A stretch of DNA of 64,000 bases from Bacteroidales bacterium UBA5072 (GCA_002415855.1 DIAS01000068.1:6484-70483), one strand, 5' to 3'; shown: positions 9,965-51,524, numbered from the stretch's first letter. Made by a program: numbers and translations. Notes: generated from the letters alone by a model not told the origin.

Positions 9965-10084
9965 GAGAGGAATGCTTTCTTTTATTAATTCCCTAATTTA
10001 AGGATTTGTGGCAGATATGTTATACTTTTAGGATGGGAATTCTTCATACTCCGCCCCATAACTGGATGACATCGGCCACAGACT

Positions 10085-11536: not shown

Positions 11537-11575
11537 ATCCTTTTAATACCTGGATCAGCTCATCAGAAAGATTTC

Positions 11576-15577: not shown

Positions 15578-15925
15578 TGTTAATCCTCCGATTTGGTTTA
15601 AGGATCCTTTTGGTAAATACCCTTTTAAATATTGATTCACAAATTTTCATGAAGTAAAAATCGGTTGTTGCTGGAATTTCATTTTTTACATTTGGTTCTC
15701 AAACCAAAAAGGAATATACACAACAGATTTTTGATCCTGCAAGTGAAACCTGGGAGTGTCCTGTCCTTCTTTTGCATAATACTCCAGCAAAAGCAAGTAA
15801 GGAATGGGAAGATGAATCTTAATAATGAGCGATTAAGTTAGTGAATAAGAGCACTAAAGTCAAGTTTTTACCGCGTATTTTGATAAATCAGATTCAGTTG
15901 ATGGCGAAGAGGTAATAAATCCTGC

Positions 15926-19662: not shown

Positions 19663-20406
19663 ATGGTACAGGCAATGTCGCGATCCGTGTATCAAAAGAT
19701 ACGAAAACCTGTAGTAATAACGACGGCAATATTGTTTCATTTGCTGTTAATCTTTCATTTGTTATTCTCCCCGGTGATAATTGTAATGGCATCCTACAAA
19801 GGAATTATAAATGCCAGTTTTGTCGTTTTTGCTTTAATTATCCTATTATCACTTTTCTTTGGCAGAGCGTATTGTTCATGGTTTTGCCCGGGATGTGGTG
19901 TACAGGAGATCATGTCATTTTTCATTAAAAAGAAATCCAAAAACACTAAAGCTTTATACATCAAGTATTTTCTTTTCACTATCTGGATAGGGGCAATAAC
20001 GGCAGGTTACACTTTAAATGGACTAAATAAGATAGATTTGGCTTATGGGATGTCAGATATTTCTTTTGCACGAAAGATAGTCCTTACACTCGGGGCAATC
20101 GTGATAATTGTTCCCTTAACAGCTATTTTCGGACAGTTTGCTTCCTGCAAATATATTTGTTGGCAGGCCCCTTTTATGATTATTGGAACGAAAATTCGGG
20201 ACTATTTTCATTTTCGCGGCTTGCGATTGCACGTTCATGCAGAAAACTGCAGGAACTGTAAGATCTGCAATTTTAAATGCCCTATGAATATCGATGTAAT
20301 GGGGCATGTGAAAAAGAACAGCATGAATAATTCAGAATGCATATTATGTGGCAACTGTATAGATAGCTGCAAACATAATGTGATCAGGTATGCCATTACA
20401 AAATAG
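19663..20406 (+). CDS. Membrane-bound 4Fe-4S ferredoxin-type protein (NapH/MauN-like architecture)
   Basis: Several TM helices plus Cys motifs CSWFCPGCG, CRNCKICNFKCP and CILCGNCIDSC. Confidence 0.7.
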   Translation: MVQAMSRSVYQKIRKPVVITTAILFHLLLIFHLLFSPVIIVMASYKGIINASFVVFALIILLSLFFGRAYCSWFCPGCGVQEIMSFFIKKKSKNTKALYIKYFLFTIWIGAITAGYTLNGLNKIDLAYGMSDISFARKIVLTLGAIVIIVPLTAIFGQFASCKYICWQAPFMIIGTKIRDYFHFRGLRLHVHAENCRNCKICNFKCPMNIDVMGHVKKNSMNNSECILCGNCIDSCKHNVIRYAITK

Positions 20407-20563: not shown

Positions 20564-20944
20564 TTAATTCGGATACCAATAGGAAACTGTATAACTTCCG
20601 CCTCCCTCGTAATAGGTTCCGCTTCCTTCATTGCTGCTGCCGGTGCTGGTGCTGGCCGGCGAGATATAAGATCCGACCGTAACCGTATCGCATGAACATA
20701 TCACACCGCCAAGGAAAGTAGAATCCGGTGAAGTGGTTATGGTATCACATGTACATACGCTTCCTGACCCGGGAAAATTTCTCGATGAGGCTACACAGTC
20801 GCATATGCACACTGCGCCTGCCGGTAAAGGCGTTTGGCAGGAAACCGTCAGAATTTCAGAACCCATCTGCCGGATCTGCCGTGCCTCAATGGCCTCAGTT
20901 ATGTCCGGATCAAACAGATGATGCACAGGCTTACCTTCGGGCAT
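20564..20944 (-). other. Tail-coding segment of paralog A (126 aa from MPEGKP to YWYPN-stop); putative modified region
   Basis: Counting from the Met of MPEG, Cys residues sit at tail positions 36, 46/48/50, 64/66 and 83/85. Paralogs B and C have the same positions. Confidence 0.6.
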
Positions 20945-22015
20945 GGACCATAATCTGATGGTATGATCGCTGCTGCCGGAAACAAGAAACCGCCCGTCGG
21001 GACTAAAAGTTACCGAGTTCACGGCGTCCGTGTGTCCTTCAAAAGTGGAAAGAGGATTCCCGTTTTGAACCGACCACAACAATATAGTCTTGTCTTCACT
21101 TCCCGAGGCTATCGTTCTGCCGTCGGGTGCGAAACAAACTGAATTCACAAAGTCCTTATGACCTTTAAGTGTATTTATCAGCATGCCATCAGCCACAGAC
21201 CATATTCTGACACATTTATCCTGACTTCCGGTGGCAAGCATGTCGCTGTCATGATTAAAACACAATGTCAATACCGATTTAGAATGACCTGTCAGGGTTC
21301 TGATAACCTGCCCATCAGGCACAGTCCATAATTTTACAGAATTGTCACCGCTGCAGGATGCCAGGCTCTTACCGTCTGTACTGAAAGCAAGCGAATATAC
21401 AAAACTTGAATGGCCTTCCAGTGTGGTTAGCAGGTTCCCTTCGGGAAATGACCATAATTTAATCTTCTTGTCATAACTTCCGGTTGCCAGAAGCTTACCG
21501 TCAGGTGAAAAGCAGACTGCACTCACCCATCCTCCATGACCATCAAGCTTCTTTAGCAGACTGCCGTCTTTTGCCAGCCAAATGCTCACCGATTTGTCGT
21601 TGCTTCCGCAGGCAATGATTTCACCCAGGGGATGGATACTTATTGACCGGACCGCATTTGCCTCCGTTTCTAATTTGTTCACCAGACCTCCTCCGGGAAT
21701 TGACCAGATTTTGATAACACCCTCCTTGCCGCCTGAATAAAGCAGTTTATCATTTCTCCCAAAACAAAGCGTGTTGATGACATCGGAATGAGCCTGAAAG
21801 GCTGAAGAATTCTTACCTGTGTCTTTTATGATCCCTCCCTGAGGTGTACTATTCTTTTCTGCACATCCCGTTATTGGCAAAAGCGACAGACCTGCCCCGA
21901 GCGTTCCCAGGCTACCCAGAAATCTTTTACGCGAAAGGGATAATCCTTTCCTGTCCTTTTTAAAGGCATATATCTCAGGCCCTTCATCCTGTTTTAAAGC
22001 TCGTTTTTTTATCAT
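20564..22015 (-). CDS. WD40 beta-propeller protein, paralog A: Tat-like signal with lipobox, about 7 WD repeats, C-terminal 8-Cys + Gly/Tyr tail ending YWYPN
   Basis: 483 aa. The N-terminus has SRKRFLGSLGTLGAGLSLLPITGC. WD repeats follow the pattern H.D.V.S..FSPDG..LASGS.D.TIKLWS. The tail is ...SCQTPLPAGAVCICDCVASSRNFPGSGSVCTCDTITTSPDSTFLGGVICSCDTVTVG...GTYYEGGGSYTVSYWYPN. Confidence 0.85.
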   Translation of the reverse strand: MIKKRALKQDEGPEIYAFKKDRKGLSLSRKRFLGSLGTLGAGLSLLPITGCAEKNSTPQGGIIKDTGKNSSAFQAHSDVINTLCFGRNDKLLYSGGKEGVIKIWSIPGGGLVNKLETEANAVRSISIHPLGEIIACGSNDKSVSIWLAKDGSLLKKLDGHGGWVSAVCFSPDGKLLATGSYDKKIKLWSFPEGNLLTTLEGHSSFVYSLAFSTDGKSLASCSGDNSVKLWTVPDGQVIRTLTGHSKSVLTLCFNHDSDMLATGSQDKCVRIWSVADGMLINTLKGHKDFVNSVCFAPDGRTIASGSEDKTILLWSVQNGNPLSTFEGHTDAVNSVTFSPDGRFLVSGSSDHTIRLWSMPEGKPVHHLFDPDITEAIEARQIRQMGSEILTVSCQTPLPAGAVCICDCVASSRNFPGSGSVCTCDTITTSPDSTFLGGVICSCDTVTVGSYISPASTSTGSSNEGSGTYYEGGGSYTVSYWYPN

Positions 22016-22038: not shown

Positions 22039-23508
22039 TTAACCAAAAAAATCTCTGAAATCACGCCGATGTGAATAACCGCTTACGTCTTGCCCCGACC
22101 CGATAACCGACAGTAGCACTTTGTATATTGCAGCCAACAGGTAGAAATCAGTAAGCAGAAAAATCCCTTCCATGGTCTTTACATATCTGCTTGAATACGT
22201 TTCGTTGCATACATAAAAGACCACCGAGAAAATAAAGAAATTAAAAAAAATGAGAATGAACTCACGGGGGACCAGGAACCCGGAAACACTCATCTGGTTG
22301 TAGTACAGGGCATAAAGGGAAAGCATCAGGATAACCAGATAAGAATACTGTAACTTATTGAGTGTTCCTGAAAAAAAACCAAAATACACGGCAAGGACGA
22401 TCAGTCCCAGAGCGACTGGTACAGCCAGGTATCTGTAAAGCTTGCTGGTATAAGTTCTTGATCTTTTGAACAGCCAAATTGCTAAAAGGATCATGAGTAG
22501 CGTCAGCAGAAAGGAAAAGGTGAGAAGCGGTGAAAAGCCGGCTTTTATTTTTGCAGGAATATTCAGCAAATACTCAGGGTTATGGCTATAGAAGCTGATC
22601 ACCCTGAGCATATCGAGATGCGTGCCGTGATCAGCATTATAAAAAGCGTTGATGTCATCCCGCCATTCCGGATGCCAGAGTCCATCAGAACAATATTCGT
22701 TGTTACCGTCTAAAAGTACCTCATTGCTTTGGGTTGATACAAAGGTGAAATGGTGTACCTGAGAAGACAGGTAACCCGACCATATCCCGGTTATCGCCAA
22801 GAAACCGATCAGGAATACCAAGGTGTTTAGCAATCTGCCCTTTCTTTTGAACAGCATGCAGTAAAGATCACAGAGGATGACAAGAGGAAAAAGAAGAAGG
22901 GTTGTGCCCTTGTTCAGTACGGAGATTCCCAGGATAGTGCCCAGCAATATGGAAGAGATCACGGATCCCCGGTAATGGAAATAGAGGCATATCGTTATGA
23001 TCGAGAGGAACAAAAACTGCCAGTTTTCAGGCATCAGATGCTCCGGGAACCTTCTGTTAAGTATGAAAAAGGAGATAAAACCCAGTAGGCCGATAAAATA
23101 TCCTTTCTCTCCCCAGAAAAGTTTTCCCGCAACTACCAGCAATATACCGGCACACAGTAATACGATCAGTTGCAAATACTTGATGATTAAGGGATTTACG
23201 CCAAATAACCTGTATGTGACGCATAAGAACACGGGGTAGAAAGGCGGCCTGTGAAATGCTTTGATTCCGGAAAAATGCTGCCAGAACCTTATTTTCTCCT
23301 CAGTGAGATCAACGATCTTATACCGGTCTATTTCCTCTATCAGGCCTGTTACAGGATACCCATGTCCGTCACAATAATTTACTGCAATGGACTGGTAGTC
23401 CCATTCGTCTCCGGTAAAGATCACGGAATTGGTAAAGTGACCCCGGCGTAAAGCAAAAAGCAATAAAATGGCACCAATAACGAGTAATATCAGGCTTTTC
23501 TTCTTCAA
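22039..23508 (-). CDS. Polytopic GT-C fold glycosyltransferase (PMT/ArnT, GT39/GT83-like)
   Basis: 489 aa with about 11-13 predicted TM segments. The first extracytoplasmic loop carries a DE motif (FTGDEWDYQSIAVNY), as in PMT_2/ArnT-type lipid-linked-sugar transferases. Confidence 0.6.
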   Translation of the reverse strand: MKKKSLILLVIGAILLLFALRRGHFTNSVIFTGDEWDYQSIAVNYCDGHGYPVTGLIEEIDRYKIVDLTEEKIRFWQHFSGIKAFHRPPFYPVFLCVTYRLFGVNPLIIKYLQLIVLLCAGILLVVAGKLFWGEKGYFIGLLGFISFFILNRRFPEHLMPENWQFLFLSIITICLYFHYRGSVISSILLGTILGISVLNKGTTLLLFPLVILCDLYCMLFKRKGRLLNTLVFLIGFLAITGIWSGYLSSQVHHFTFVSTQSNEVLLDGNNEYCSDGLWHPEWRDDINAFYNADHGTHLDMLRVISFYSHNPEYLLNIPAKIKAGFSPLLTFSFLLTLLMILLAIWLFKRSRTYTSKLYRYLAVPVALGLIVLAVYFGFFSGTLNKLQYSYLVILMLSLYALYYNQMSVSGFLVPREFILIFFNFFIFSVVFYVCNETYSSRYVKTMEGIFLLTDFYLLAAIYKVLLSVIGSGQDVSGYSHRRDFRDFFG

Positions 23509-23512
23509 TCTG

Positions 23513-25114
23513 CTATAATCCTGAATTTTCGATTTTCATCAATACGTTATTCTTATCAGCCAGCCACCAGAACCGTATCAGGTGATCAAGCCCGCATGTG
23601 ATAAAATAAAATGAATTTGGCGCAATACTTATAGAAGTAACTGAGGTCTGGTGGGCCTGAAACGATCTTAGTAACTTTCCGGAACCAAGATCCCAGATCT
23701 TGACCACCCCATCCAGATCACCGCTGATCAAATAATTTCCGTCCCTGCTTATTTCCAGATCCCGGACATAAGACTTATGGCCTTCGAAGGTTTTCGACAG
23801 CGTACCTGTTTCCGTATCATAGATTCTGATCACATTGTTTTTTGAACAGGCTGCTATGTATCTTCCGTTCGGAGTAATATCCAAATCCATTACGGGTGAA
23901 TTATTTCTGATGGTCCTGAGCAGGTTACCGGTTTTCAGGTCCCATATCCGGATAGTTTCGTCCCAGCCGCCTGAGACTATCTTTCCTGCTTTTTCAGAAG
24001 CAGCTATTGAAGTGATGGGCTTCCCGGAACCGGAAACGATATTGATCCTCGCACCTGTACTGATATTCCAGCCAACAACACTCCCATCCCAGGAGGAAGT
24101 AAAAAGCACACCATTGCTCAGCAGCAACATATCGGATATCATGGAGGATTGTCCTGCAACCGACTGCGGTTTCTTATCGGAGAACAGCGGGTGGCTGATG
24201 ACCAGGCTGTCGGTTACTCCCAGTACATTCCACTCCACATTCCCCGCAATGAATCCTCTATATACCGCAGGTTGTACAGGCTGTTTTATTTGACCTTCGC
24301 TGAACAGGCTGGTGAGTTTGAGCTCATAGTTCTCCGAATTGGAAATAACGGCATAGTCCGTTAAAAGAACAGCTTCGTTCTCCGGCAGGTTCTTGTCGAA
24401 TATTTTACCATCAGGAATTCCCCTGAGTAGTTCAGCTATTTTCTTTGTGCAAATCCCTGTACTATCCAGATTACCTGCCTTTCTGTAACAATCCATTGCC
24501 CAGCCGTACCATCCGTTTGCATAAAATTGTCTTCCGACAGCTTTATATCCTTCGGATTCCAGATCTGCCATACCAAAGTATTTCAAGGCCTGAACATAAT
24601 CAGCTGACGCGATCAGTAAACTGCCGATCCGTCGGGCACCCCGCTCCGCCTCATTTGCCTTTTTATAAAATGCAAAAGCGTTTTCCAGATCATTGCCCTT
24701 AAGCAATGTATCCGCAATTCTGAGGGCGGCAGTTTTTCCTTCTCCGGCTATGTTGTAATAAGTATAGGAGGCTTCATAATAACCCGACTTAAATAAATAT
24801 TCTGCCATCTTTTTACTGCCTTCTTTTTCCTTTCCTGCCTTCTGATAAGCATCCAAAGCCTTCTCATAGTTGATTTTATAGTAGTAGGGAGCCAGGGTGT
24901 TATCGTTGAATTTAATCTCATTAACATAGGCTTCTGCTACTGAGAAATAGCAGGCTTTTTGTTCATCACCCTTTGTTTTACTGCAAAACTGTTCCGCTTC
25001 AGCCAGTTTACTTTCTGAAATAAGCATTTCAAGCGAAACGCATGATGAGGCTATAAACGGGAGGCACGTTACCAAAACAGCGAACAGTGTCTGAATATAT
25101 GTTCTTTTTGTCAT
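23513..25114 (-). CDS. Lipoprotein with an N-terminal TPR/Sel1-like repeat half and a C-terminal WD40 half (no Cys tail)
   Basis: 533 aa with lipobox FIASSC. Repeated A..Y.KAG/A..FYKKAN helical-repeat motifs are followed by WD repeats (SGGWDETIRIWDL, SGDLDGVVKIWDL). Confidence 0.7.
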   Translation of the reverse strand: MTKRTYIQTLFAVLVTCLPFIASSCVSLEMLISESKLAEAEQFCSKTKGDEQKACYFSVAEAYVNEIKFNDNTLAPYYYKINYEKALDAYQKAGKEKEGSKKMAEYLFKSGYYEASYTYYNIAGEGKTAALRIADTLLKGNDLENAFAFYKKANEAERGARRIGSLLIASADYVQALKYFGMADLESEGYKAVGRQFYANGWYGWAMDCYRKAGNLDSTGICTKKIAELLRGIPDGKIFDKNLPENEAVLLTDYAVISNSENYELKLTSLFSEGQIKQPVQPAVYRGFIAGNVEWNVLGVTDSLVISHPLFSDKKPQSVAGQSSMISDMLLLSNGVLFTSSWDGSVVGWNISTGARINIVSGSGKPITSIAASEKAGKIVSGGWDETIRIWDLKTGNLLRTIRNNSPVMDLDITPNGRYIAACSKNNVIRIYDTETGTLSKTFEGHKSYVRDLEISRDGNYLISGDLDGVVKIWDLGSGKLLRSFQAHQTSVTSISIAPNSFYFITCGLDHLIRFWWLADKNNVLMKIENSGL

Positions 25115-25187: not shown

Positions 25188-25565
25188 TTAGTTGGGATAC
25201 CAATATGTCCGGTAATAGGTAGTCCCGCCGTAATAAGTACCTGGATTGTAATAGGTTGTCCCACCATGGTAACCCGAGTACGTGGAGCTGCTTCCGATCG
25301 TAATTGTATTGCAGATGCATATCATGGTGCCTGATAAGGCAGCACCAGCGGGAAGTGTAATTGTATTACATGTGCAAACCATTTCTGTACCCGGGTAGCT
25401 TCTTGAATCCGCAATACAATCACATATGCAGGTAGCACCGGGGGGTATGGGAGAACCACAGGGCAATGTCAAAACACCCGGGCCCATTTGCTTTACCTGC
25501 ATGGCATCTGTTTTTTCAGTAACAGAAGGATCAAAGATCACAAAGCATGGATCACCTTCCGGCAT
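25188..25565 (-). other. Tail-coding segment of paralog B (125 aa); putative modified region
   Basis: Same Cys spacing as A and C (tail positions 36, 46/48/50, 64/66, 83/85). One extra Cys sits at tail position 7. Confidence 0.6.
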
Positions 25566-26588
25566 TGTCCATAGACGGATTGTTTTATCAGCACCTCCTG
25601 CTACCAAGGTCTGTCCGTCGGGGGTGAAACAAACAACATTGACATCTTCATTTGTCTCTATTTTCAGAGTCAATAGATCCGACCCTTCGGGTACAGACCA
25701 GATTTTAACCGTATTGTCACTGCTGCCCGATGCGAGCCAATTGCCGCCCGGATTAAAACAAACCGAGTTGACAGTTTGGGTATGGCCTTCCAGTGTTTTA
25801 ATGAGCGTACCTTCAGGAACGGACCAAAGCATAATTGTTTTGTCCTCACCCGCAGAAGCCAATATTTTGCCATCACTCCTAAAACACAGATCTGTGGCTT
25901 TTTCACGGTGTCCTGCCAGCATCTTCAGTACTTTATCTTCGTGCAGGGACCAGAGTGTGATCTGATGATCCATTCCGGACCATGCAAGCAGTTTGCTGTC
26001 GGGACTGAAGCATACCACCTCAATCTTATCCTTCAGCGATAACGTTTTCAAGGGTTTCAGACCTGTGAGGGAGGTTAACCTGATGGTGTTGTTCAGGGGG
26101 AGCGTGGCAACCATTTTGCTGTCGGGGCTGATACGTACCTTATGTCCCATCACTCTGCCAAGGCTTTTTCCGGTCGGTAAATACCAGAACTCCGTCTGAT
26201 TAATATTGCGGTAACCGATCGCCAGAATTTTACCGTCGGGACTAAAACTCAGGTCATCCACCGAGCCGCAAGGGAATGTCTTCAGTAATTTTCCGTCAGG
26301 CAAAGACCAAAGTTTGGCAGTTCCGTCGGAACTTCCCGATGCAATTATCTCACCGTCAGCTCTGACTTTGAGTGCAGTTACTTCATTATTATGTGCCTTG
26401 AAGACCGACAGATCCAATCCCTTTACTTCAATCTTATCGGCAAGCGCCTCGACAGGCTTGAGTGAAAGTACGGCTCCGATGGTGCCAATTGCTCCAAGAA
26501 ATTCCTTTCTGGTGAAGATCAGCTTATCCCTGGTCTTTTTAATTCCGTAAATTTCAGCCTCTCCATTCTTTTTATTGGGTGTTTTCAT
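25188..26588 (-). CDS. WD40 beta-propeller protein, paralog B: Tat-like signal, C-terminal 8-Cys + Gly/Tyr tail ending YWYPN
   Basis: The listed ORF extends to 26651. Met22 at 26588 (MKTPNKKNGEAEIYGIKK...) aligns with the starts of paralogs A and C and avoids overlapping the tail of paralog C. The tail is ...PCGSPIPPGATCICDCIADSRSYPGTEMVCTCNTITLPAGAALSGTMICICNTITIG...YYGGTTYYRTYWYPN. Confidence 0.85.
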   Translation of the reverse strand: MKTPNKKNGEAEIYGIKKTRDKLIFTRKEFLGAIGTIGAVLSLKPVEALADKIEVKGLDLSVFKAHNNEVTALKVRADGEIIASGSSDGTAKLWSLPDGKLLKTFPCGSVDDLSFSPDGKILAIGYRNINQTEFWYLPTGKSLGRVMGHKVRISPDSKMVATLPLNNTIRLTSLTGLKPLKTLSLKDKIEVVCFSPDSKLLAWSGMDHQITLWSLHEDKVLKMLAGHREKATDLCFRSDGKILASAGEDKTIMLWSVPEGTLIKTLEGHTQTVNSVCFNPGGNWLASGSSDNTVKIWSVPEGSDLLTLKIETNEDVNVVCFTPDGQTLVAGGADKTIRLWTMPEGDPCFVIFDPSVTEKTDAMQVKQMGPGVLTLPCGSPIPPGATCICDCIADSRSYPGTEMVCTCNTITLPAGAALSGTMICICNTITIGSSSTYSGYHGGTTYYNPGTYYGGTTYYRTYWYPN

Positions 26589-26589
26589 A

Positions 26590-26616
26590 TCAGTTGGGTT
26601 AGGGTTCTCAGTTGGG
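26590..26616 (-). repeat. 9-nt direct repeat CCCAACTGA x2 (9-nt spacer) at the paralog C stop / paralog B start junction
   Basis: The minus strand reads TAC TGG TAT CCC AAC TGA GAA CCC TAA CCC AAC TGA T ATG. This gives three in-frame stops in 27 nt, and the second copy abuts the paralog B ATG. Confidence 0.8.
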
Positions 26617-26946
26617 ATACCAGTATGTAGTGTAATAGCCTCCGCCGCCATAATAAGTTGGAGGAGAATAGGTTCCTACTGTTATGGTATTGCATATGCA
26701 AATCATCCCGGCGGATAAAGGCGAACCGGCCGGTATGGTAATGGTATCACACGTACAAATGGTATGAGAACCAGGATAGCTCCGTGAAGAAGAAATGCAG
26801 TCGCAGATACAAGTAGCTCCGGCAGGCAGGGGCGTACCACAGGGCATGGTTAGTGTTTCAGGCCCCATTTGACGGACCCTTCGTGCATCTGTTTTTTCAG
26901 TATTTGCCGGATCGAACAAAATATAGGCTGGTTTGCCTTCAGGCAT
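26608..26946 (-). other. Tail-coding segment of paralog C (112 aa); putative modified region
   Basis: Same Cys spacing as A and B. It has the shortest Gly/Tyr segment (21 aa after the last CxC block). Confidence 0.6.
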
Positions 26947-27996
26947 GGTCAACAACCGGATTTTGTCATCATTGCTTCCGGTTGCAAGGGTCTGTCCGTC
27001 GGGACTGAAGCAAACCGCATTAATATCACCTGACTGGCCCATGAAGGTATTCAGAGTTTTCCTGTCATTCACCGACCAGAGTTTAAGCATACCCGAGTTA
27101 TTTTCGTAAGCGGTGGCAACCATTCTGCCATCGGGACTAAAAGTGAGCGCATTCACCTGTTTGCCTAATTCTTCCTTCGTTTGAATAAGTTCGAATTCAG
27201 GAATCCTCCAGAACTTCATGGCATGATCCGTACTTCCTGAAGCCAGTATTCTGCCATCGGGACTGAAACACAGGGAATTTATACTTCCTGTATGGCCCTC
27301 GAGGGTATTCAGCAACTGCCCATCAGGCAAAGACCACAGTTTAATGTTCTGATCACTGCCCGATGCCAGGATCTTGCCATAAGGGCTGAAACAAACGGCA
27401 TAGACCTTGCCGTCAGAATAGGACTGCAGTTGTGTTGTCAGATTTCCTTGCTGAACAGACCAAAGTCTCACGGTATTATCATCACTGCAGGAGGCCAGCG
27501 ATTTTCCGTCAGGGCTGAAACATAAGCTTCTTACCCCGTAGGTGTGCCCTTTCAGCGTTTTTTGAAGATTCCCGTCAGGAACCGACCAAAGCCTGATGGT
27601 TTTATCGTTGCTGGCTGAGGCCAGCGTTTTACCATCGGGACTGAAGCAAACGGTTGTGACCTCCTCAGTATGTTGTTTGATCTTTTTGATGATCTTCCCG
27701 TCCGGGATGGACCACAATTTGATGGTATTATCGCTGCTTCCGGAAGCGAGCATTTTGCCGTCGGGACTAAAACAGACGGACTTTACCGCATCCGAATGCG
27801 ACTTAAAATCCGACACACCCGTACCTGTATCTTCTATCTTTTCCGCATGTCCTTCAACGGACAATAGTGCCATTCCGGCACCCAATGTGCCAATAGCACC
27901 CAGGAATTCTTTACGCGAGAAGGAAAGCCCTTCATTCTCTTTTTTCAGGGCATAGATCTCAGGTTTTTCATCGGATTTCTTTTTGGGGGTTTTCAT
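26608..27996 (-). CDS. WD40 beta-propeller protein, paralog C: Tat-like signal, C-terminal 8-Cys + Gly/Tyr tail ending YWYPN
   Basis: The listed ORF extends to 28035. Met14 at 27996 (MKTPKKKSDEKPEIYALKK...) aligns with paralogs A and B. The tail is ...PCGTPLPAGATCICDCISSSRSYPGSHTICTCDTITIPAGSPLSAGMICICNTITVGTYSPPTYYGGGGYYTTYWYPN. Confidence 0.85.
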   Translation of the reverse strand: MKTPKKKSDEKPEIYALKKENEGLSFSRKEFLGAIGTLGAGMALLSVEGHAEKIEDTGTGVSDFKSHSDAVKSVCFSPDGKMLASGSSDNTIKLWSIPDGKIIKKIKQHTEEVTTVCFSPDGKTLASASNDKTIRLWSVPDGNLQKTLKGHTYGVRSLCFSPDGKSLASCSDDNTVRLWSVQQGNLTTQLQSYSDGKVYAVCFSPYGKILASGSDQNIKLWSLPDGQLLNTLEGHTGSINSLCFSPDGRILASGSTDHAMKFWRIPEFELIQTKEELGKQVNALTFSPDGRMVATAYENNSGMLKLWSVNDRKTLNTFMGQSGDINAVCFSPDGQTLATGSNDDKIRLLTMPEGKPAYILFDPANTEKTDARRVRQMGPETLTMPCGTPLPAGATCICDCISSSRSYPGSHTICTCDTITIPAGSPLSAGMICICNTITVGTYSPPTYYGGGGYYTTYWYPN

Positions 27997-29332
27997 GGAT
28001 TTTATAATTGATTGATTTTCCGTCGCATACACCACCGCTATCTATCATGCATCGTATCAGCAGTTCCCTTGTTATATCACGGTTTACATCACAGCGGCTG
28101 GAAAACGTTGTATTGCCGAAACTCCCCGGCAATATTGTTTTCGCCGGACAATCCCCCGCACAATGCCAGTAACAATAACATTCCCGGCACAATAGTTTTC
28201 TTTCTGCAATCCGATTTTGAAAATCTTCCCGTTTCTTAAAATCAATCCTCATTTCTCCGGTTGCTGAAAGTTGTCCGAAGTGAAAGGCTTCTGCCAGCGG
28301 ATGACTTCCGCCTGATATCTCATAGCACGATGACAATATCCCATCGGGAGTAACCACCAGGGCATTGTCATGGGCGGTGCAAAAACAATCCGTATTCACC
28401 CAGGGCCTGGCACCGGAATAATATAACCAGCGTTTGTTTTCCCTGGCTATGTCATATGCCTTTAAAAAACTCTCGACAAAAAGCTTGTTGTTTTGAATAG
28501 TCTGGTGATTGGCTACAGCCCTTCCGGCACCGAATGCAGGTTCCACCTGGAAAGTCTGGCATTTTGTTTCATTGCAAAGGAAAGCAATGCTCCGTTCCAG
28601 GTGATTCACACTGTTGTTGGTAACTGTGAGCCTTATACCATAACGGATACCGGATTGATCAAGCTTCCGGATATTATTCATGATGACATCAAAGGTGCTG
28701 CCTCCAATTGTCAATGGCCGTTGCTGATCCTGAACCTCTTTTATCCCGTCAAAGGAAAGGGTAAGTGTGTCGATATTGGATATAATCCAGGCTGCTTTGT
28801 TATTGTTCCAGTAACCATTCGATGTAAGCTCTATACTGCAGGGCAGATCCTTGTTCCTTGCATACCGGGTAAAATCCTGCAGCTTTTGAAAAGGCAAGGC
28901 AGGTTCACCTCCGCCGTGAAAAGCCACAGTAAATTGACCTGTACCAGCCTTTACTGCATGATCATATACAAAATCAATTGCTTTTTTACCTGTATCAAGG
29001 GACAATTCCGATGGTACAGCGTCCCCGCCATTGGCAAAGCAATAGGTGCACCTGAAGTTGCATGCCGATGTCATGCACAGAACAGCTACCGTGGGCTTAA
29101 ATTCAGTGGTGGTATTTTTTGAACTCTCAAAATGACGGGTATTAAAGAATCCATGTGCCTGCAAAAACGACAGAACTTTTTTATTCTTCTCAGGGTTAAC
29201 TATTTTCTTGCCCATGACATCGCCTATGAGATCCACGGTAGCCTGGTTACCTACAAATGCAAATTTGTTGAGCGGCTGATAAATGATATATTTATCCAGG
29301 TAAGGTATGGTATAGGTATCCGGATGAAGCAT
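27968..29332 (-). CDS. Radical SAM enzyme with a full SPASM domain (peptide/protein-modifying maturase type, anSME/QhpD-like architecture)
   Basis: 454 aa. The CX3CX2C motif is CNFRCTYC, after an about 85-aa N-terminal extension (YIIYQPLNKFAFVGNQATVDLI, RRE-like). SPASM motifs seen directly: C-x12-G-x4-C (CTAHDNALVVTPDGILSSC) and C-x2-C-x5-C-x3-C (CRECYCYWHCAGDC). The stop overlaps the paralog C start by 29 nt. Confidence 0.85.
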   Translation of the reverse strand: MLHPDTYTIPYLDKYIIYQPLNKFAFVGNQATVDLIGDVMGKKIVNPEKNKKVLSFLQAHGFFNTRHFESSKNTTTEFKPTVAVLCMTSACNFRCTYCFANGGDAVPSELSLDTGKKAIDFVYDHAVKAGTGQFTVAFHGGGEPALPFQKLQDFTRYARNKDLPCSIELTSNGYWNNNKAAWIISNIDTLTLSFDGIKEVQDQQRPLTIGGSTFDVIMNNIRKLDQSGIRYGIRLTVTNNSVNHLERSIAFLCNETKCQTFQVEPAFGAGRAVANHQTIQNNKLFVESFLKAYDIARENKRWLYYSGARPWVNTDCFCTAHDNALVVTPDGILSSCYEISGGSHPLAEAFHFGQLSATGEMRIDFKKREDFQNRIAERKLLCRECYCYWHCAGDCPAKTILPGSFGNTTFSSRCDVNRDITRELLIRCMIDSGGVCDGKSINYKIHENPQKEIR

Positions 29333-31022
29333 CCTCTAAATTTAACAAGTTAATTTGATTATTATCATAGCGTTTCATCTTTTCTTTTAGTCTCTCCCAG
29401 AATTCTGATATAAAGGGGAGATTACAGTCATTCTTATGGTTGCAGGAGCTGCAATTAAAACAATCGGGTAAATTCATCCTGTGAAATACGTCCCGCGGTC
29501 TGAAACTTTCATTTCCTCCACAGAGGGATCTCAGGAATGGCAAGGATTGCATCTCGCTGAGCGAAAAGTGGTCCGAAATTCTGCCCTGCAGAATACTGAA
29601 ACTGATCAGGCCAAGGAGTTGCTCCGAATTTAACCGGCCAACCGGGTGCTTTGGATAATACCTGAAATAATCACCGGTGTGAAATTCCTTATCGGGCGAG
29701 ACATCAACGTACTTCTGCAACGAACGGAGCATGTTTGTTCGTTCTTTGCCGGTGCTCCTTTTCAGGTTTGCCATTACCGGCAGGAACTGATCAAACTCGA
29801 GAAATGCGGTTGAAAATGAGTTGTCAGGGAAACTGGTAATTTCACTCATACCTGGAATGTAGACAGAATAGGCAGGTTGCCCCAGAAATGAATTATCCCT
29901 TACAAAGAGTTTCCTGCTGTCTCTTTTCAAAATAGCGAAGAGAAATTGAAGATCCTGCTGATCAGAAACAGATTCGGGATGCTCAAATCCTGCAAATTCA
30001 TAAGAAGGAGCATCTGCCAAAAGATCAGGAGGCCATTGACCGGCATAGGCTTGAATTGTCCGACCCAGACTCTTTCTCCAAAAATCAGCATCGAGGTTAT
30101 AGGGCAGGTTTTCAATGAGTTCTTTCGCAGGCTGAAAAAGTATGGCCCCACCCTGGAAAATTTCTGTAAAGCAACGTTCCAGTGCCGTTATAGGGCTGGG
30201 ATCCGCGCCAAGATGAAAGGCGTGGCCGTTCTCATCATTGCTCAGCAATACACCTATAACCGGGTATCCCTTGCCCATTGAACAATCCTTAATCCTTATG
30301 CGATAGCCAAACTGATGTATTAACAGGTTGATCTTTTCAGAGATTTCTGTTCCTTCGAAACAGGACAAAGGGATATCAGGGGGACAAAACGGATCTTTAT
30401 ACAGGGACTTCATGACAAACCGTTCAAAGATCTCTGAGATACCCTGTATCAGGGCTTCTTCAGGCGTATTGCCACTGCACATACCATTACTGCCGACGAT
30501 GACCTGCATTTCCCTGAAAGGGAAATATGCCGTCTTTCTTTCAAATATTTCATAAAACGGGATGCCTGCATGCCAATGGCTGTTTTTATATTGATGCCGA
30601 GATATACCGGTGAGGAAGAAAAAATTATCTGCAAAAACGGAATTTGAATGTTTTCCTGTTAAAAAGTATTTCTCATCGGGGAAATGAAAGAACTGATGGA
30701 TTGTCTGTTTCTCTCGCTCACCTTCGGAGGGATATAGAAGCACCGAATAAAAAGCGAGATTCTGAACTCTTTCGATCATTTCGCCCCAGGCACTGGCTGA
30801 GGCCCATTCACTTGAGCCACCTTTGCCATAGGTTGTGAAAACCTCCTGCTGATTTTCCGGGTTAATTAAACTTAATTTGCAGGCCTTGAAATAAGCATTG
30901 CCTTCAACTGGTGTTTCGATCATTTCCGCACCAAGATCACTGAATATGGCCCTGATGATCCTGACAGTTTCATGCGGAGGTTTTGCTTTATAGGGCTTGA
31001 CCCTTTTCAACGGCTTTGCCAT
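29292..31022 (-). CDS. Stand-alone YcaO-domain protein (ATP-dependent backbone-amide-activating family; E. coli YcaO-like length and architecture)
   Basis: 576 aa. The N-proximal motif TYGKGGSSEWASASAWGEMIERV corresponds to the YcaO signature (E. coli TNGKGATKKAALASALGEYFERL). There is no fused E1-like/Ocin-ThiF N-domain. The C-terminus carries a Cys cluster, CFNCSSCNHKNDC. It overlaps both flanking radical SAM genes (35 nt and 41 nt). Confidence 0.8.
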   Translation of the reverse strand: MAKPLKRVKPYKAKPPHETVRIIRAIFSDLGAEMIETPVEGNAYFKACKLSLINPENQQEVFTTYGKGGSSEWASASAWGEMIERVQNLAFYSVLLYPSEGEREKQTIHQFFHFPDEKYFLTGKHSNSVFADNFFFLTGISRHQYKNSHWHAGIPFYEIFERKTAYFPFREMQVIVGSNGMCSGNTPEEALIQGISEIFERFVMKSLYKDPFCPPDIPLSCFEGTEISEKINLLIHQFGYRIRIKDCSMGKGYPVIGVLLSNDENGHAFHLGADPSPITALERCFTEIFQGGAILFQPAKELIENLPYNLDADFWRKSLGRTIQAYAGQWPPDLLADAPSYEFAGFEHPESVSDQQDLQFLFAILKRDSRKLFVRDNSFLGQPAYSVYIPGMSEITSFPDNSFSTAFLEFDQFLPVMANLKRSTGKERTNMLRSLQKYVDVSPDKEFHTGDYFRYYPKHPVGRLNSEQLLGLISFSILQGRISDHFSLSEMQSLPFLRSLCGGNESFRPRDVFHRMNLPDCFNCSSCNHKNDCNLPFISEFWERLKEKMKRYDNNQINLLNLEDASSGYLYHTLPG

Positions 31023-31974
31023 GACCAGCTATGGGATTATAAAACCTTTGAATTCTGAATGACAGACAACCACCGTTGCACCGGTTATTGAACAAAGGGC
31101 AGGAGGAACAGTACGGGTATATTCCTATGGTCTTATATGATGTCAATGCCTCCTCGAATTTTCCAATCAGGTCTCCAGCCTGCAATTCATCGTGGATTTT
31201 AATTTTTGTCAGATTATTCAACGGGTAGCATGAAATAAAAGAGCCATCGGACAGCAAATCAATTATGGGATGGCAGCAGGTTCCGGCTTTCACCAATTCA
31301 TCCGCTAAAAGTTCATAATGCTCCTGTGGAAACATACAGGGAACAAAGCCACAGTCAAATCCCAGCGATATTCCCGATTTTTTTGCATCGAGCTTGAATT
31401 TTGCGATCTTTTGCCCAATTTTGGGATATTCCTTCGGATGCAGGTAAATATTGACCATGCTCAGAACCGAATGTGATATCCCCATCCGGATCTCCTTTTT
31501 GAGCCCGAATTTATTCACATAATCCAGCAGGTAATGCAATTCCTGCCTGGCGTTGTATATATTCACCCCGGCAATGATAACCGGTCCAAGCTTTTGCATC
31601 ACCTCCAGCTGACGCCTGGTGCCTGCCTCATTCTTCTCCTCCGGCTGTATGGTGTTCAGCAAAATAGAAAGCTTTTCTCGGGGTATGGAATACAGAAATT
31701 CCAGAACTTTATCCGAGATAAGTCCATTGGTAAAAAGCATTACGCTGAGACCACGGTTCAGTGCTTTCCCAACAAAACTTATAAATGCCGGATGAAGCGT
31801 AGGTTCTCCACCCAGCAGCCGGGCCTGCCGTATACCCGATCTCTCAAGGTAATCCAGCGCTTTTTCATAAAGCCCCTCCTCCATATGGGCTTTGCCATAC
31901 TCATTTCGCGTATCGTTGGCAAAACAATACACACAGCTTTTGTTGCAGACATTGGTAATTGACAGGTTGGCCAT
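30988..31974 (-). CDS. Radical SAM enzyme with a SPASM/twitch-like C-terminal Cys domain
   Basis: 328 aa. The CX3CX2C motif is at the extreme N-terminus (CNKSCVYC). The C-terminal region has C-x9-G-x4-C (CHPIIDLLSDGSFISC) and C-x2-C-x6-C-x3-C (CSSCPLFNNRCNGGC). Confidence 0.8.
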   Translation of the reverse strand: MANLSITNVCNKSCVYCFANDTRNEYGKAHMEEGLYEKALDYLERSGIRQARLLGGEPTLHPAFISFVGKALNRGLSVMLFTNGLISDKVLEFLYSIPREKLSILLNTIQPEEKNEAGTRRQLEVMQKLGPVIIAGVNIYNARQELHYLLDYVNKFGLKKEIRMGISHSVLSMVNIYLHPKEYPKIGQKIAKFKLDAKKSGISLGFDCGFVPCMFPQEHYELLADELVKAGTCCHPIIDLLSDGSFISCYPLNNLTKIKIHDELQAGDLIGKFEEALTSYKTIGIYPYCSSCPLFNNRCNGGCLSFRIQRFYNPIAGHGKAVEKGQAL

Positions 31975-31985
31975 GCTGTAGGGAA

Positions 31986-32420
31986 CTATTTGTCTGACAA
32001 TCCTATTTCATCCATGTTAAATGATTCTCTGGGATGGCAGATCCGCCATGATGCCAATCTGAAAAACAAGGAGGTGACGGTACTGTAAATATTGTGGTAA
32101 GGCAGATCCGCCTCATTCCGGATCAACAGTGCGGTTTGTTGAAGCGATTTGCCTTGCTGAAAATATTCGAATGCCTTGAGCTCAGTTTCGTTTAGCTCCA
32201 CACACAGGTATTTGTTAAACCTGCTTTCCGGTATGATAAAGAGGTTATTGTCCAAATGCCAGTTCTCCTCGGGAAAGAATACCGGTTCTATTTGCTCAAT
32301 CATCTTTTCAGGCAGTTCATGCAACCTGTTCAGCGGTATATGCTGAACACCGCGGATCTCATCGCGCAGAACGCCCAACTGACCAATAAACTGCCTGAAA
32401 AAGTCCCTTCTTGAATGCAT
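31986..32420 (-). CDS. Small cytoplasmic protein, possible PqqD-like peptide-binding (RRE) or chaperone component
   Basis: 144 aa and the first gene of the packed block. The segment LNETELKAFEYFQQGKSLQQTALLIRNEADLPYHNIYSTVTSLFFRLASWRI follows the PqqD/RRE winged-helix pattern. The N-terminus SRRDFFRQF looks like a twin-arginine motif but has no hydrophobic h-region. Confidence 0.4.
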   Translation of the reverse strand: MHSRRDFFRQFIGQLGVLRDEIRGVQHIPLNRLHELPEKMIEQIEPVFFPEENWHLDNNLFIIPESRFNKYLCVELNETELKAFEYFQQGKSLQQTALLIRNEADLPYHNIYSTVTSLFFRLASWRICHPRESFNMDEIGLSDK

Positions 32421-32459: not shown

Positions 32460-33707
32460 CTATTTTACCTTATCCATTATCTCCTTCACCGCATCCTTAT
32501 GCACCATAAAATCCATCATCTTCAACTTCACATAATCCTCCGAAAAGAAATAATAACCGAACTCCTTAGCATTCTCATCGTTATTGCGTGAACCGGAACC
32601 TGAATCCTTGATCAGGTACCAGTCTTTACCATCCTTTTCAAGGTAACCCACCAGGTGTATGCCATGGTCATCGGTGGTGGTCCTGTTGGAGAATCTGAAC
32701 TGACGGGCATCGTCATTGATATATGTTGCGGGTATATCAAAATCGGGTACTATTGCACATTGGGTGTAACGGTCGAATCCAGGTTCAGAAACATCGCCAC
32801 CGATACTGAGCGTATACCCTTTTCTGATTGCACTTTTCAATGCAGACATGTAAACATCAAGTGGAACATTGATGTAGGCTGTGCTGTGCCACCAGTTGTC
32901 AGGCACTTTATACTCAACCAGCTGATAAAAAGGTTCCTGCCTGTATGAAAGGATGTCAACATAATCATCCGGGTTGATCTTCACAACATCGTTAAGGTAT
33001 TGCAGGGGTGTTAACTTTTTCCCGTTCACGATAATTTCCGCCGGAGGCTCTCCCAGGTAATGGTTCATAATGGACTTGATGGTGGCAATGGCGGCCTCTT
33101 CGTTCCAGCCTGAGTTGGCCTTCAAGGATTCGAGGTAGCTTTTCATTTCTTCTATCATGAGCTCATGATTGTGGTATTTTCGGCCATTCAGCAACCCGGT
33201 ATAAGCTTCGGCGGGTACCACACCGTATTTTTTCCAGATGCGGGTGGTGGCATTGGCCTCAGATCCTTCATCAAACACTGAGTTCCCTCGCTCCTGTACA
33301 TACCGCCTTGCTTTTTCAACATATTCCCAATAAACACTATAAATCTCGGACAATTTCACCTGTATTTTATTGATCCTGTAAGCCTCCGATTCCAGAAAGG
33401 ATGTTGTGGAAAAACACCAGCATGTGCCCGTATTCCCTTGCGAAATCGGTGCATTGTGCCAGTACTGGTTTGTATACAGATCAACCTTGTTTGGGAAAGA
33501 AGCATCACTGAGATCTGCCACGAAGCTTCTGGCAGGTTTCGGTGGTTCAAGCTTTTCATTCATTTCCCGGTCGTCCCTGAGAATGGAATTCTGGTAAAAA
33601 CCCGGTCTGGACTCCCTGAATGTGGCTTTGTCCTTGTTCTGGCAGTATACATGACCTGAGACAGAGCAGGCAGCAAAAGTTGCTATAAATAATATCCTCG
33701 TTTTCAT
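32460..33707 (-). CDS. pepC: C1-family cysteine peptidase (aminopeptidase C / bleomycin hydrolase-like) with a signal peptide
   Basis: 415 aa with the catalytic-Cys motif QGNTGTCWCFSTTSFLESE and later His/Asn regions (DDHGIHLVGY...). The N-terminal signal is MKTRILFIATFAACSVSG. Confidence 0.8.
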   Translation of the reverse strand: MKTRILFIATFAACSVSGHVYCQNKDKATFRESRPGFYQNSILRDDREMNEKLEPPKPARSFVADLSDASFPNKVDLYTNQYWHNAPISQGNTGTCWCFSTTSFLESEAYRINKIQVKLSEIYSVYWEYVEKARRYVQERGNSVFDEGSEANATTRIWKKYGVVPAEAYTGLLNGRKYHNHELMIEEMKSYLESLKANSGWNEEAAIATIKSIMNHYLGEPPAEIIVNGKKLTPLQYLNDVVKINPDDYVDILSYRQEPFYQLVEYKVPDNWWHSTAYINVPLDVYMSALKSAIRKGYTLSIGGDVSEPGFDRYTQCAIVPDFDIPATYINDDARQFRFSNRTTTDDHGIHLVGYLEKDGKDWYLIKDSGSGSRNNDENAKEFGYYFFSEDYVKLKMMDFMVHKDAVKEIMDKVK

Positions 33708-49121: not shown

Positions 49122-49727
49122 TTACTTCCAGTTCAGGGTCTCAATGAGGTGTTCGATATCGGCAGAAAAGAAACTGACAACCGGTGCGAGAGAATCCTTG
49201 TTCGGGATAACATTGAAGTACAAAGCGCCACTCAGAAAATTACGGCTGCTGTCGGTAGCATAAAAGTTAAATGATGAGGCGGTGTTCCCCTTGATATCAT
49301 ATATAATCCCGTATACTTTTCGTTCGGGAAAAGAAAAAGGTTGTTCAATGATATCATCAGCCTTAATGATATGTTTATAGGCAATAGTATGGATATCCTC
49401 GACAAGCATGTCGAGATTATCTTGCAACTCCTTGTAGGTTAAATGAATGGTTCCTTTGTAATCCGGAAAATCGATATTCAGCCAGCAGGGTTCCGGATGG
49501 TTACCCCGATAGGGATCTACTTTGGCATAAACGGGGACTTCAAAGCTGTAACTGCAATCGGACTGGTAAAGGATGTACTTCTTTTCGGGAAAATCGATTC
49601 TGAAATAACTCCTGGGCTTGGGAGTGTAAGCCCTGGTGCACGCGGCAAAAGCCATGATGAGCAAAGTCAGAGCCGAAAGGTATGCAAGGCAACGTTGCCT
49701 GAAGAAACTTCTGTTGTTAATTTTCAT
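49122..49727 (-). CDS. gldD: Gliding motility lipoprotein GldD
   Basis: Lipobox AFAAC followed by PKPRSYFRIDFPEKKY, characteristic of GldD. It lies immediately downstream of gldE with an 11-nt overlap. Confidence 0.75.
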   Translation of the reverse strand: MKINNRSFFRQRCLAYLSALTLLIMAFAACTRAYTPKPRSYFRIDFPEKKYILYQSDCSYSFEVPVYAKVDPYRGNHPEPCWLNIDFPDYKGTIHLTYKELQDNLDMLVEDIHTIAYKHIIKADDIIEQPFSFPERKVYGIIYDIKGNTASSFNFYATDSSRNFLSGALYFNVIPNKDSLAPVVSFFSADIEHLIETLNWK

Positions 49728-51081: not shown

Positions 51082-51089
51082 TGCATAAA

Positions 51090-51524
51090 CTAAAAGGGCA
51101 GGTCATCGCCGACTGCCGGCTCTTCCATTGGTGGTTTATCTGCCGGATGCTGATCCATAGGCTGAGCCTGCACTGCAGATGCACCCGGTTCATCAGCTCT
51201 CTTACCCAGGAGTTGCATTACGTCGGCAACTATCTCGGTAGCATACCTTTTGTTTTTATCCTTGTCCTCCCATGACCGTGTGCGGATCTTCCCCTCAATA
51301 TAGATCTGGCTTCCTTTTTTAACATACTTTTCTGCCACCTCGGCAAGCCCTCTCCACAGAACAACACTGTGCCATTCTGTTGTAGTAACCCGTTCCCCGC
51401 TTTTATTTTTATAAACGTCACTTGTTGCCATCCTCAGCGTGCATACAGGTGTATTATTATCCAAATAACGAACTTCAGGGTCCTGACCGACATGACCCAC
51501 CAAAATGACTTTGTTAACCGACAT
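51090..51524 (-). CDS. ssb: Single-stranded DNA-binding protein
   Basis: The OB-fold N-terminus is [20 protein letters not shown]. The C-terminal region is Pro/Gln-rich and ends in the acidic tip DDLPF. Confidence 0.93.

Follow-up and report, generated by a model that had tools for sequence, protein, structure and literature searches.

A four-gene radical SAM and YcaO cassette from a Bacteroidales bacterium, predicted to mature the Cys-rich tails of Tat-signal propeller proteins

A stretch of 64,000 nt from the uncultured Bacteroidales bacterium UBA5072 (GCA_002415855.1 DIAS01000068.1:6484-70483), hereafter the window, carries a compact block of four maturase genes that runs directly into a gene for a WD40-propeller protein with a Cys-rich C-terminal tail. 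The block encodes p144, a protein with the fold of PqqD and of the recognition elements (RREs) of peptides made by ribosomes and modified after translation (RiPPs); two radical S-adenosylmethionine (rSAM) enzymes of the SPASM type, rSAM1 and rSAM2; and a YcaO protein. These identities agree with those proposed in an earlier reading made from the DNA alone (the sequence-only reading). In independent loci the enzyme set co-occurs only with proteins that share the same leader and Cys-rich tail, which supports the suggested link to the propeller tails. We propose, with a probability of roughly three in four, that the block specifies a leader-guided, RiPP-like protein-maturation system, which would act in the cytoplasm on the Cys-rich tails before export through the twin-arginine translocation (Tat) pathway.

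Results

Organization of the Gene Block

The four open reading frames (ORFs) are tightly packed on the minus strand, where the sequence-only reading had placed them: p144 (144 aa, 31986..32420), rSAM2 (328 aa, 30988..31974), YcaO (576 aa, 29292..31022), and rSAM1 (454 aa, 27968..29332). Recomputed from the coordinates, the rSAM2 stop overlaps the YcaO start by 35 nt (30988..31022), the YcaO stop overlaps the rSAM1 start by 41 nt (29292..29332), and the rSAM1 stop overlaps the start of the first propeller gene, paralog C, by 29 nt (27968..27996, ATG at 27996). The same three values had been read before, and the starts are backed by homologs. The last overlap would be 68 nt if paralog C started at the upstream GTG at 28035; its MKTPKKK...PEIY N-terminus matches paralog B and the homologs in the related locus L001, which supports the ATG at 27996. 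A TTG at codon 5 of YcaO would cut the first overlap to 23 nt without abolishing it.

In the downstream proteins, conservation sets in within a few codons of the proposed starts. The conserved R7, K9, K12, and P16 of YcaO are encoded inside the rSAM2/YcaO overlap, and I9, Y18, and P20 of rSAM1 are invariant, with I9 encoded inside the YcaO/rSAM1 overlap. Residues 317-328 of rSAM2 are not conserved and have a predicted local distance difference test (pLDDT) score below 50 in the AlphaFold2 model, and the alignment of YcaO to its L001 ortholog stops at residue 561 of 576. Because conservation starts near the downstream starts and is lost in the upstream tails, the overlaps are judged to be real, and rSAM2/YcaO overlaps of 4-46 nt were also seen in related loci. 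They are compatible with translational coupling, and the "stoichiometric" expression proposed earlier is a conjecture from the overlaps. Scans for sigma-70 promoters and terminators, which are not suited to Bacteroidetes, gave results at chance level.

Recurrence of the Cassette in Other Genomes

The YcaO protein has about 60 close homologs (36-57% identity), nearly all metagenomic. We examined the loci L001/L008 (a Paludibacter metagenome-assembled genome, MAG), L002, L003, L004/L012 (a Victivallales MAG), L010 and L011 (Bacteroidales MAGs), and a Joint Genome Institute (JGI) contig (sample 3300075153). All of them encode p144, rSAM2, YcaO, and one to five CteB-like SPASM rSAMs, usually together with an extra 85-aa, weakly PqqD-like protein. 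The set is present in at least five independent loci, from Bacteroidales and Victivallales MAGs and from metagenome contigs, in each case next to the precursors described below. A co-occurrence scan was then made over 87 loci (about 85 distinct places), with rSAM2 scored above 190 bits and the CteB-like rSAM above 180 bits. L001/L008, L002, L003, L004/L012, L010, L011, and the window hold p144, rSAM2, a CteB-like rSAM, and tail precursors together, and p144, strong rSAM2 or rSAM1 matches, and tail precursors were found in none of the about 75 loci with more distant YcaOs.

The cassette is rare. In a scan of 185,579 species genomes with the YcaO alignment as query (a single YcaO sequence found nothing), a close full-length YcaO (at least 39% identity) was present in only five of the 80 best loci, plus the 2.9-kb fragment L014. 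The whole system was found in four species representatives among these 80 (L008, L010, L011, and L012). The window has the smallest enzyme set among the loci with the system, and this identifies as the core p144, rSAM2, YcaO, and a single CteB-like rSAM. Models in NCBIfam and Pfam cover neither p144 and the precursors nor the 85-aa protein and a 311-aa protein of L001 described below; the cassette fits no curated family, with enzymes from known superfamilies and a RiPP-like logic.

Related YcaOs also occur in other cluster types. In Candidatus Limiplasma (L006, L020, and L021), the cluster around a related YcaO has two YcaOs in all, no fewer than five radical SAM genes, a precursor of the Nif11 type, and a C39 ATP-binding cassette (ABC) exporter. 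In a Bacteroides sp. (L007/L022), a related YcaO is accompanied by a Cys-rich precursor of 55 aa and three genes that resemble those of rSAMs. Next to the L007 cluster lie a relaxase and integrases, so this RiPP cluster may be mobile.

Predicted Substrates

Three propeller paralogs in the window, all on the minus strand, are the predicted substrates: paralog C (462 aa from the ATG, 26608..27996), paralog B (25188..26588, longest ORF from 26651), and paralog A (20564..22015). Paralog C has a PEIY leader at 27963, an RK Tat-like motif at 27915, seven WD40 repeats (seven stretches matched by Pfam), and a 77-aa Cys-rich tail (26841..26611) that ends in YWYPN. The corresponding tails lie at 25460..25191 in paralog B and at 20839..20567 in paralog A. 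By eye, each window propeller reads S/T-R-K-x-F-L-G, then an h-region, and then GHA, ALA, or ITGC. The ITGC of paralog A forms a lipobox after the RK motif, and paralogs B and C have AxA-like sites, so the three proteins may reach different locations in the envelope.

The same layout was seen when precursor tails were gathered by regular expression across the fetched loci. The leader consists of an acidic stretch followed by P-[EK]-[IV]-[YF]-x-[IVLF]-x-[KR]. Some 8-12 residues further on comes R-[RK]-x-F-[LIF] with a hydrophobic stretch up to an AxA-like site or lipobox. The tails hold two to seven C-x-C-[DN]-x-[VI] units, then a Gly/Ser/Tyr-rich spacer and a ...TYWYP[NC] C-terminus. Only some precursors have the seven WD40 repeats, and small forms of 123-166 aa lack the propeller; the window holds the propeller type only. 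A homolog search with a 116-aa tail returned only 3 proteins, probably owing to the low complexity of the query and the limits of the word index.

The small forms, which keep the leader and tail, would suit a classical secreted RiPP, in which the tail or small precursor is cut off and released as a cross-linked peptide (an antimicrobial or signal) and the propeller is a carrier or extended leader. A C1-family peptidase gene 39 nt upstream of p144 might supply the cut. However, this gene is not conserved beside the system in other loci, and no protease, peptidase-containing ABC transporter (PCAT), or other exporter is conserved across them. Moreover, the fusion of the leader to a Tat signal, in many cases with a lipobox, suggests that the product is retained in the periplasm or anchored in a membrane, and three paralogs keep intact seven-repeat propellers. 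We therefore regard release of a small product as unlikely and favor maturation of the tails on the proteins that carry them.

rSAM1 Is Closest to Thioether-Forming Peptide Maturases

The motifs noted earlier in rSAM1, namely CNFRCTYC, C-x12-G-x4-C, and Cx2Cx5Cx3C (CRECYCYWHCAGDC), were all present with Cys residues invariant in the family, and the seven SPASM Cys (C318, C336, C382, C385, C391, C395, and C414) keep the canonical spacing. The protein matched PF04055 (E 5.3e-11), and its L001 ortholog is 39% identical. Its top NCBIfam match was the SCIFF maturase (TIGR03974, 106.9 bits against an equivalog cut-off of 425), followed by PapB (NF047865, 104.8 bits against 340), CcpM (90 bits) and CefB (86 bits), both below their cut-offs, the anaerobic sulfatase-maturing enzyme anSME (TIGR03942, 70.9 bits against 349), and QhpD (TIGR03906, 65 bits against 453, over the N-terminal half only). 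The SCIFF and PapB scores lie between roughly one quarter and one third of their cut-offs (107/425 and 105/340). The best PDB match was CteB (5wgg, E 1.1e-25, residues 56-418), and the alignment to CteB (5wgg/5why) spans the CX3CX2C core and the seven-Cys SPASM domain. With the family profile, CteB was matched at E 1.8e-41, compared to 5.6e-23 for anSME. The N-terminal ~85 residues are conserved (I9, Y18, P20, L21, and N29), and the CefB and CcpM models have N-termini that are co-linear with them.

These sequence comparisons place rSAM1 closest to the CteB/SCIFF and PapB thioether-forming maturases and not to sulfatase maturases. Membership among the latter, an outcome that the sequence-only reading had named as fatal to its proposal, was not found (107 bits for SCIFF and 105 for PapB compared to 71 for anSME), and no sulfatase CxPxR motif (C/S-x-P-x-R) was present in any ORF of the window. 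The relatives of rSAM1 offer a guide to its likely product. PapB, QhpD, and the NxxC enzymes form thioethers from Cys to the beta-carbon of Asp or Asn, and the Cys-Asp thioether ranthipeptides, like the substrates here, have a conserved Asp/Asn or Thr near the Cys. In the tails the Asp/Asn after CxC is invariant.

The presence of QhpD among the matches raises another reading, in which the cross-linked Cys/Asp/Trp-rich tail is a built-in cofactor or metal site that works with the propeller as an enzyme. Quinohemoprotein amine dehydrogenase, the model for such an arrangement, pairs a subunit that forms a seven-bladed propeller with a small one that carries multiple cross-links, and the CxC motifs of the tails resemble metal-binding motifs, next to an invariant Trp/Tyr end. 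But the QhpD score is far under its cut-off of 453 and lower than those for SCIFF and PapB, and neither NCBIfam nor Pfam revealed a cytochrome, flavoprotein, or other redox partner in the operon. In addition, propeller-less precursors exist, and the hosts appear anaerobic, while quinone formation needs oxygen. A redox enzyme of this kind is thus quite improbable, and cross-linking of the tails as such by rSAM1 remains the preferred explanation.

The YcaO Protein Has an Intact ATP Site and a Four-Cys Motif

YcaO matched PF02624 (E 1.3e-38, 133.6 bits) and passed the cut-off of TIGR00702 (92.8 bits against 75.65). Its best solved relative was E. coli YcaO (4q84, E 2e-28, residues 62-398), with which it shares the ATP/Mg-binding residues. 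In an alignment with 32 relatives, S77, E81, E84, R85, N185, E189, E197, E200, R201, E282, and E287 were invariant; the first four align with S71, E75, E78, and R79 of the E. coli protein, and invariance extends to the later motifs NxxxE, ExxER, and ERxxxE. Judged by these residues, the ATP site is intact. Two features set the protein apart from E. coli YcaO: the latter stands alone, whereas the window protein is embedded in a peptide-maturation operon, and the C-terminal region is different, with a CxxCxxCx5C motif at residues 521-533 (29462..29424). The four Cys (C521, C524, C527, and C533) are invariant in the 32 relatives, down to 31% identity and including those of unrelated cluster types. 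They form a possible Fe-S or Zn site, which may correspond to the "[Fe-S]-recognition domain" that review accounts report for ItfB, the YcaO of the itf cluster.

Public annotation suggests a housekeeping role instead. JGI names the YcaO a [quoted passage not shown] and rSAM2 a member of the "MoaA/NifB/PqqE/SkfB family", and the best NCBIfam match of YcaO is indeed YcaO_for_S12 (NF040716). In such a scheme YcaO would serve S12 methylthiolation, and the rSAMs would be unrelated general (MoaA/NifB/PqqE-like) enzymes or a sulfatase maturase for sulfatases elsewhere. However, YcaO reached 158 bits against an equivalog cut-off of 700 and is not a member, the anSME score of rSAM1 (70.9 against 349) is below its cut-off, and NCBIfam and Pfam revealed no methylthiotransferase domains (UPF0004/TRAM); the sulfatase motif is absent from the window. 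Strict co-inheritance ties the genes to the Cys-rich precursors, and of the five loci with a close YcaO in the species scan four carry the whole system, a pattern unlike that of a housekeeping gene. Housekeeping and sulfatase-maturase functions are thus essentially excluded. The models for SagD (TIGR03604, 36.9 bits against a subfamily cut-off of 219) and McrA-type thioamidation (30.3 bits against 365) were not matched above threshold either.

rSAM2 Belongs to a Large Uncharacterized SPASM Family

The motifs listed before for rSAM2 were also confirmed: CNKSCVYC at residues 10-17, C-x9-G-x4-C (CHPIIDLLSDGSFISC), and Cx2Cx6Cx3C (CSSCPLFNNRCNGGC), with Cys conserved in the family. Ten Cys are invariant (C10, C14, C17, C208, C213, C234, C249, C289, C292, and C299), and C303 is kept in at least 90% of members. 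The protein matched PF04055 (E 2.7e-14). Since the CX3CX2C motif begins at residue 10, rSAM2 has no N-terminal recognition domain. Its AlphaFold2 model (pLDDT 93) matched SuiB in Foldseek (E 1.8e-10, TMq 0.67-0.69 over about 334 columns), with further full-length matches to anSME, SkfB, CteB, and PqqE. Eight conserved auxiliary Cys beyond CX3CX2C and a full SPASM-like fold mark it, from sequence and model, as a SPASM-type enzyme and dispose of the "twitch-like" option left by the sequence-only reading. Neither rSAM1 nor rSAM2 reached E 0.01 with the Pfam SPASM model, and all NCBIfam equivalogs scored rSAM2 far below their cut-offs.

An exhaustive HMMER search at E<=1e-30 gathered 251 clusters at 50% identity, so rSAM2 belongs to a large uncharacterized family of SPASM rSAMs. 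Many homologs (P0198, P0203, P0220, and others) carry a fused domain of about 330 aa; its homolog in the fuller loci, a protein of 311 aa (L001 18643-19578), has no family assignment. Others lie inside proteins of 1563-1577 aa with three radical SAM domains. An apparent "pseudo-rSAM" subgroup, with homologs that start near residue 35 and lack CX3CX2C, was rejected: in L002 and L003 the start was mis-called, and the motif lies in frame upstream. The public gene calls cut these orthologs at an internal Met (L002 9046-10020, L003 9015-10004), and the same error probably affects many database entries that begin near residue 35.

p144 Has the Predicted Fold of an RRE

The 52 homologs of p144, each of about 144 aa, share the invariant residues R4, R5, F7 ... 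C128, H129, and P130. An AlphaFold2 model built with 39 homologs gave high pLDDT over residues 45-130, which form a beta-sheet followed by three helices. In Foldseek against the PDB the top matches were almost exclusively RREs (E 1.4e-3 to 1e-2, TMt 0.62-0.75), namely the lasso-peptide B1 proteins 6jx3_B and TbiB1, PqqD (5sxy and 3g2b), and the RREs of ThcOx, TglI, PbtF, MibB, McbB, and CteB. The label "PqqD-like" given to this ORF earlier is therefore supported at the level of the fold and by no sequence model, as neither Pfam, NCBIfam, nor the PDB profiles were matched by sequence and PF05402 was not hit even at E 10. Discrete RRE proteins such as PqqD and TbiB1 share the beta-sheet and three-helix fold of residues 45-130 and are likewise small, stand-alone, and encoded beside enzymes that lack a recognition domain. 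p144 differs from them in having no detectable sequence similarity, an extra 40-residue N-terminus, and an invariant CHP motif near the C-terminus.

The N-terminus of p144 (residues 1-40, window 32420..32300) contains an invariant SRRxFF...IPLxRLxELP segment, which matches the Tat consensus and resembles the RR/RK motif of the substrates. After S-R-R-x-F-F-K only about 8 hydrophobic residues follow before a charged stretch, and the segment does not look like a real signal peptide. Mimicry of the substrates, autoinhibition, and targeting to the translocon are possibilities for its role. Neither rSAM2 nor YcaO has a recognition domain, and both are in every case encoded alongside p144; the most likely role of p144 is therefore that of a leader-binding adaptor for these two enzymes. 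Fuller loci encode a second, more PqqD-like protein of 75-89 aa between p144 and rSAM2 (L001 8788-9045, L002 8776-9045, and L004 8234-8491; weak Pfam PqqD matches at E 0.06-0.12), of which tblastn found no counterpart in the window.

Neighboring Genes

Between paralogs B and A, on the same strand, lie a gene for a 533-aa predicted lipoprotein (23513..25114), which is helical in its N-terminal half, carries a WD40 domain (by Pfam) at the C-terminal end, and lacks a Cys tail, and a gene for p489, a 489-aa polytopic membrane protein by ORF translation (22039..23508), for which Pfam, NCBIfam, and PDB gave no family or structure match. Neither of these two accessory genes of the operon is conserved in related loci. 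The C1-family peptidase gene upstream of p144 (32460..33707, same strand) encodes a secreted, aminopeptidase C-like cysteine peptidase. At the other end, a gene convergent with the operon (19663..20406) encodes a membrane ferredoxin that is NapH-like and has Fer4_5 and dicluster domains. Two proteins, encoded at 11576..15640 (the larger, a beta-helix protein) and 17685..19649, bear C-terminal sorting domains for type IX secretion. A pair of 454-aa and 144-aa ORFs at 49717..51524, sized like rSAM1 and p144, was set aside: by eye, their translations are a hemolysin/CorC-like membrane protein and a single-stranded DNA-binding protein.

Discussion

Proposed Maturation Pathway

In the pathway that we propose, p144 would bind the leader that is conserved immediately upstream of the Tat motif, presenting the substrate to rSAM2 and YcaO, while rSAM1 would recognize it through its own N-terminal domain. 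Because the relatives of rSAM1 make Cys thioethers and the Asp/Asn after CxC is invariant, rSAM1 may join Cys to the beta-carbon of this repeat Asp/Asn, as PapB, QhpD, and the NxxC enzymes do. YcaO would use ATP to activate a backbone amide, either in the invariant YWYPN, a plausible target because of the ItfB amidine precedent, or at a Cys, giving a thiazoline. rSAM2 would probably install a second kind of radical cross-link, possibly in the Tyr/Trp-rich end. The Tat-type signal implies modification before export of a folded protein; the stapled and folded product would then leave through Tat, and signal peptidase I or II would take off the leader together with the signal peptide. Through their overlaps, the reading frames would hold the first substrate together with the enzymes on a single transcript with tight coupling.

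A bolder and more doubtful version, which we hold only tentatively, is that the Tat signal peptide itself doubles as the RiPP leader and that p144, with its own N-terminus resembling the Tat consensus, keeps the precursor in the cytoplasm and masks or proofreads the Tat signal until the two SPASM rSAMs and the YcaO with its Fe-S-type motif have finished the CxC[DN]x[VI]-repeat tail. Redox-insensitive staples and a C-terminal backbone modification would then precede the export of the folded propeller protein or lipoprotein and the removal of the leader by signal peptidase. This would be a class of protein maturation not recognized before, and it would extend RiPP-type chemistry to full-size envelope proteins of anaerobes.

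Comparison With Known Systems

The itf cluster of Bacteroides thetaiotaomicron, reportedly described by Clark and Seyedsayamdost in 2022, offers a partial parallel. According to the accounts of it in two reviews (PMC11002830, PMC10352776), the YcaO ItfB and the rSAM ItfD have been characterized, and ItfB, an E. coli-like YcaO described as fused to an Fe-S-type domain, installs a backbone amidine at a conserved C-terminal motif of the precursor. As described there, itf resembles the present system in a Bacteroidales rSAM beside an E. coli-like YcaO and in a conserved precursor C-terminus, and the Fe-S-type domain of ItfB (WP_004319383.1) may, by its description, correspond to the four-Cys motif of the window YcaO. 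The same accounts give itf a GG-type leader, a C39 ABC exporter, a TonB transporter, and a short peptide product (PMC11002830, PMC10352776), whereas the system here combines a leader that includes a Tat signal with a stand-alone RRE (p144), a second rSAM that is leaderless, and substrates that bear propellers. No ItfA-like (...ITF) precursor was found in the 87 loci.

ItfB was the only characterized E. coli-like YcaO in an rSAM cluster found in the literature searched. Mining of Bacteroidales with BAGEL4 has also revealed rSAM plus YcaO clusters (PMC10352776, PMC11002830). The sequence-only reading called two rSAMs with a YcaO uncommon; this still applies, although the combination of rSAM and YcaO is not unprecedented. 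In the literature searched there was no description of the present gene combination, the YWYPN motif, or Tat-linked RiPP leaders.

The Qhp system is similar in another way. QhpD, which is of the rSAM-SPASM type, introduces several thioether staples from Cys to Asp/Glu, in the cytoplasm, into the small, Cys/Asp-rich QhpC, which ends up in the periplasm beside a seven-bladed propeller. QhpC, however, is a separate subunit with its own leader, dedicated protease, and ABC exporter, and its maturation does not involve a YcaO. Here tail and propeller form one protein, for which export via Tat is predicted. The substrates of SCIFF and ranthipeptide systems are Cys-rich like the present tails. They differ in that SCIFF substrates are peptides of about 45 aa and not the tails of 460-490-aa Tat-signal proteins, in that the repeat unit here is C-x-C-[DN]-x-[VI], in contrast to SCIFF and CxxxD, and in that YcaO and a second rSAM are obligatory partners here.

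Points Against the Proposed Pathway

Several observations weigh against this pathway. All reactions were assigned by analogy, and the analogy with ItfB draws on review descriptions. All NCBIfam equivalog scores are far below the cut-offs, so no function is inherited by membership. NCBIfam and Pfam found no TfuA, azoline dehydrogenase, or E1-like/ThiF-like partner among the operon proteins, although p144 could stand in for the RRE part of a cyclodehydratase partner. The ~85-aa extension of rSAM1, seen earlier as a potential built-in RRE, is present and conserved and plausible in that role, but it gave no RRE match by hhalign against the p144 family or by PDB profile search. Export by Tat is predicted from the sequence alone, and the window precursors have RK in the motif where homologs in other loci have RR. 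Finally, one YcaO with 51% identity stands alone, in L009, with no p144, rSAM, or precursor within 10 kb. The contig is from a MAG labelled Proteobacteria (JAHIRD010000070.1), and the gene (9992-11647) lies amid the housekeeping genes guaA, efp, rtcB, topA, dprA, and secDF.

Significance

If the proposed pathway is correct, RiPP-style tailoring, by radical SAM cross-linking and YcaO backbone activation, would reach beyond small secreted peptides to full-length beta-propeller proteins and lipoproteins exported by Tat, whose tails it would modify, with a signal peptide serving as the leader. The system would also add a new substrate motif (repeats of C-x-C-[DN]-x-[VI] with a terminal YWYPN), a new RRE family (p144), and a large new SPASM rSAM family (rSAM2, at least 251 clusters at 50% identity), and should be of interest to RiPP, radical SAM, and YcaO specialists. 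With only four genes, it provides a compact minimal system for finding what the E. coli-type, four-Cys YcaO does, a question that dates back to the solution of the E. coli YcaO structure. Anaerobes could use thioether staples to stabilize their envelope proteins without disulfides.

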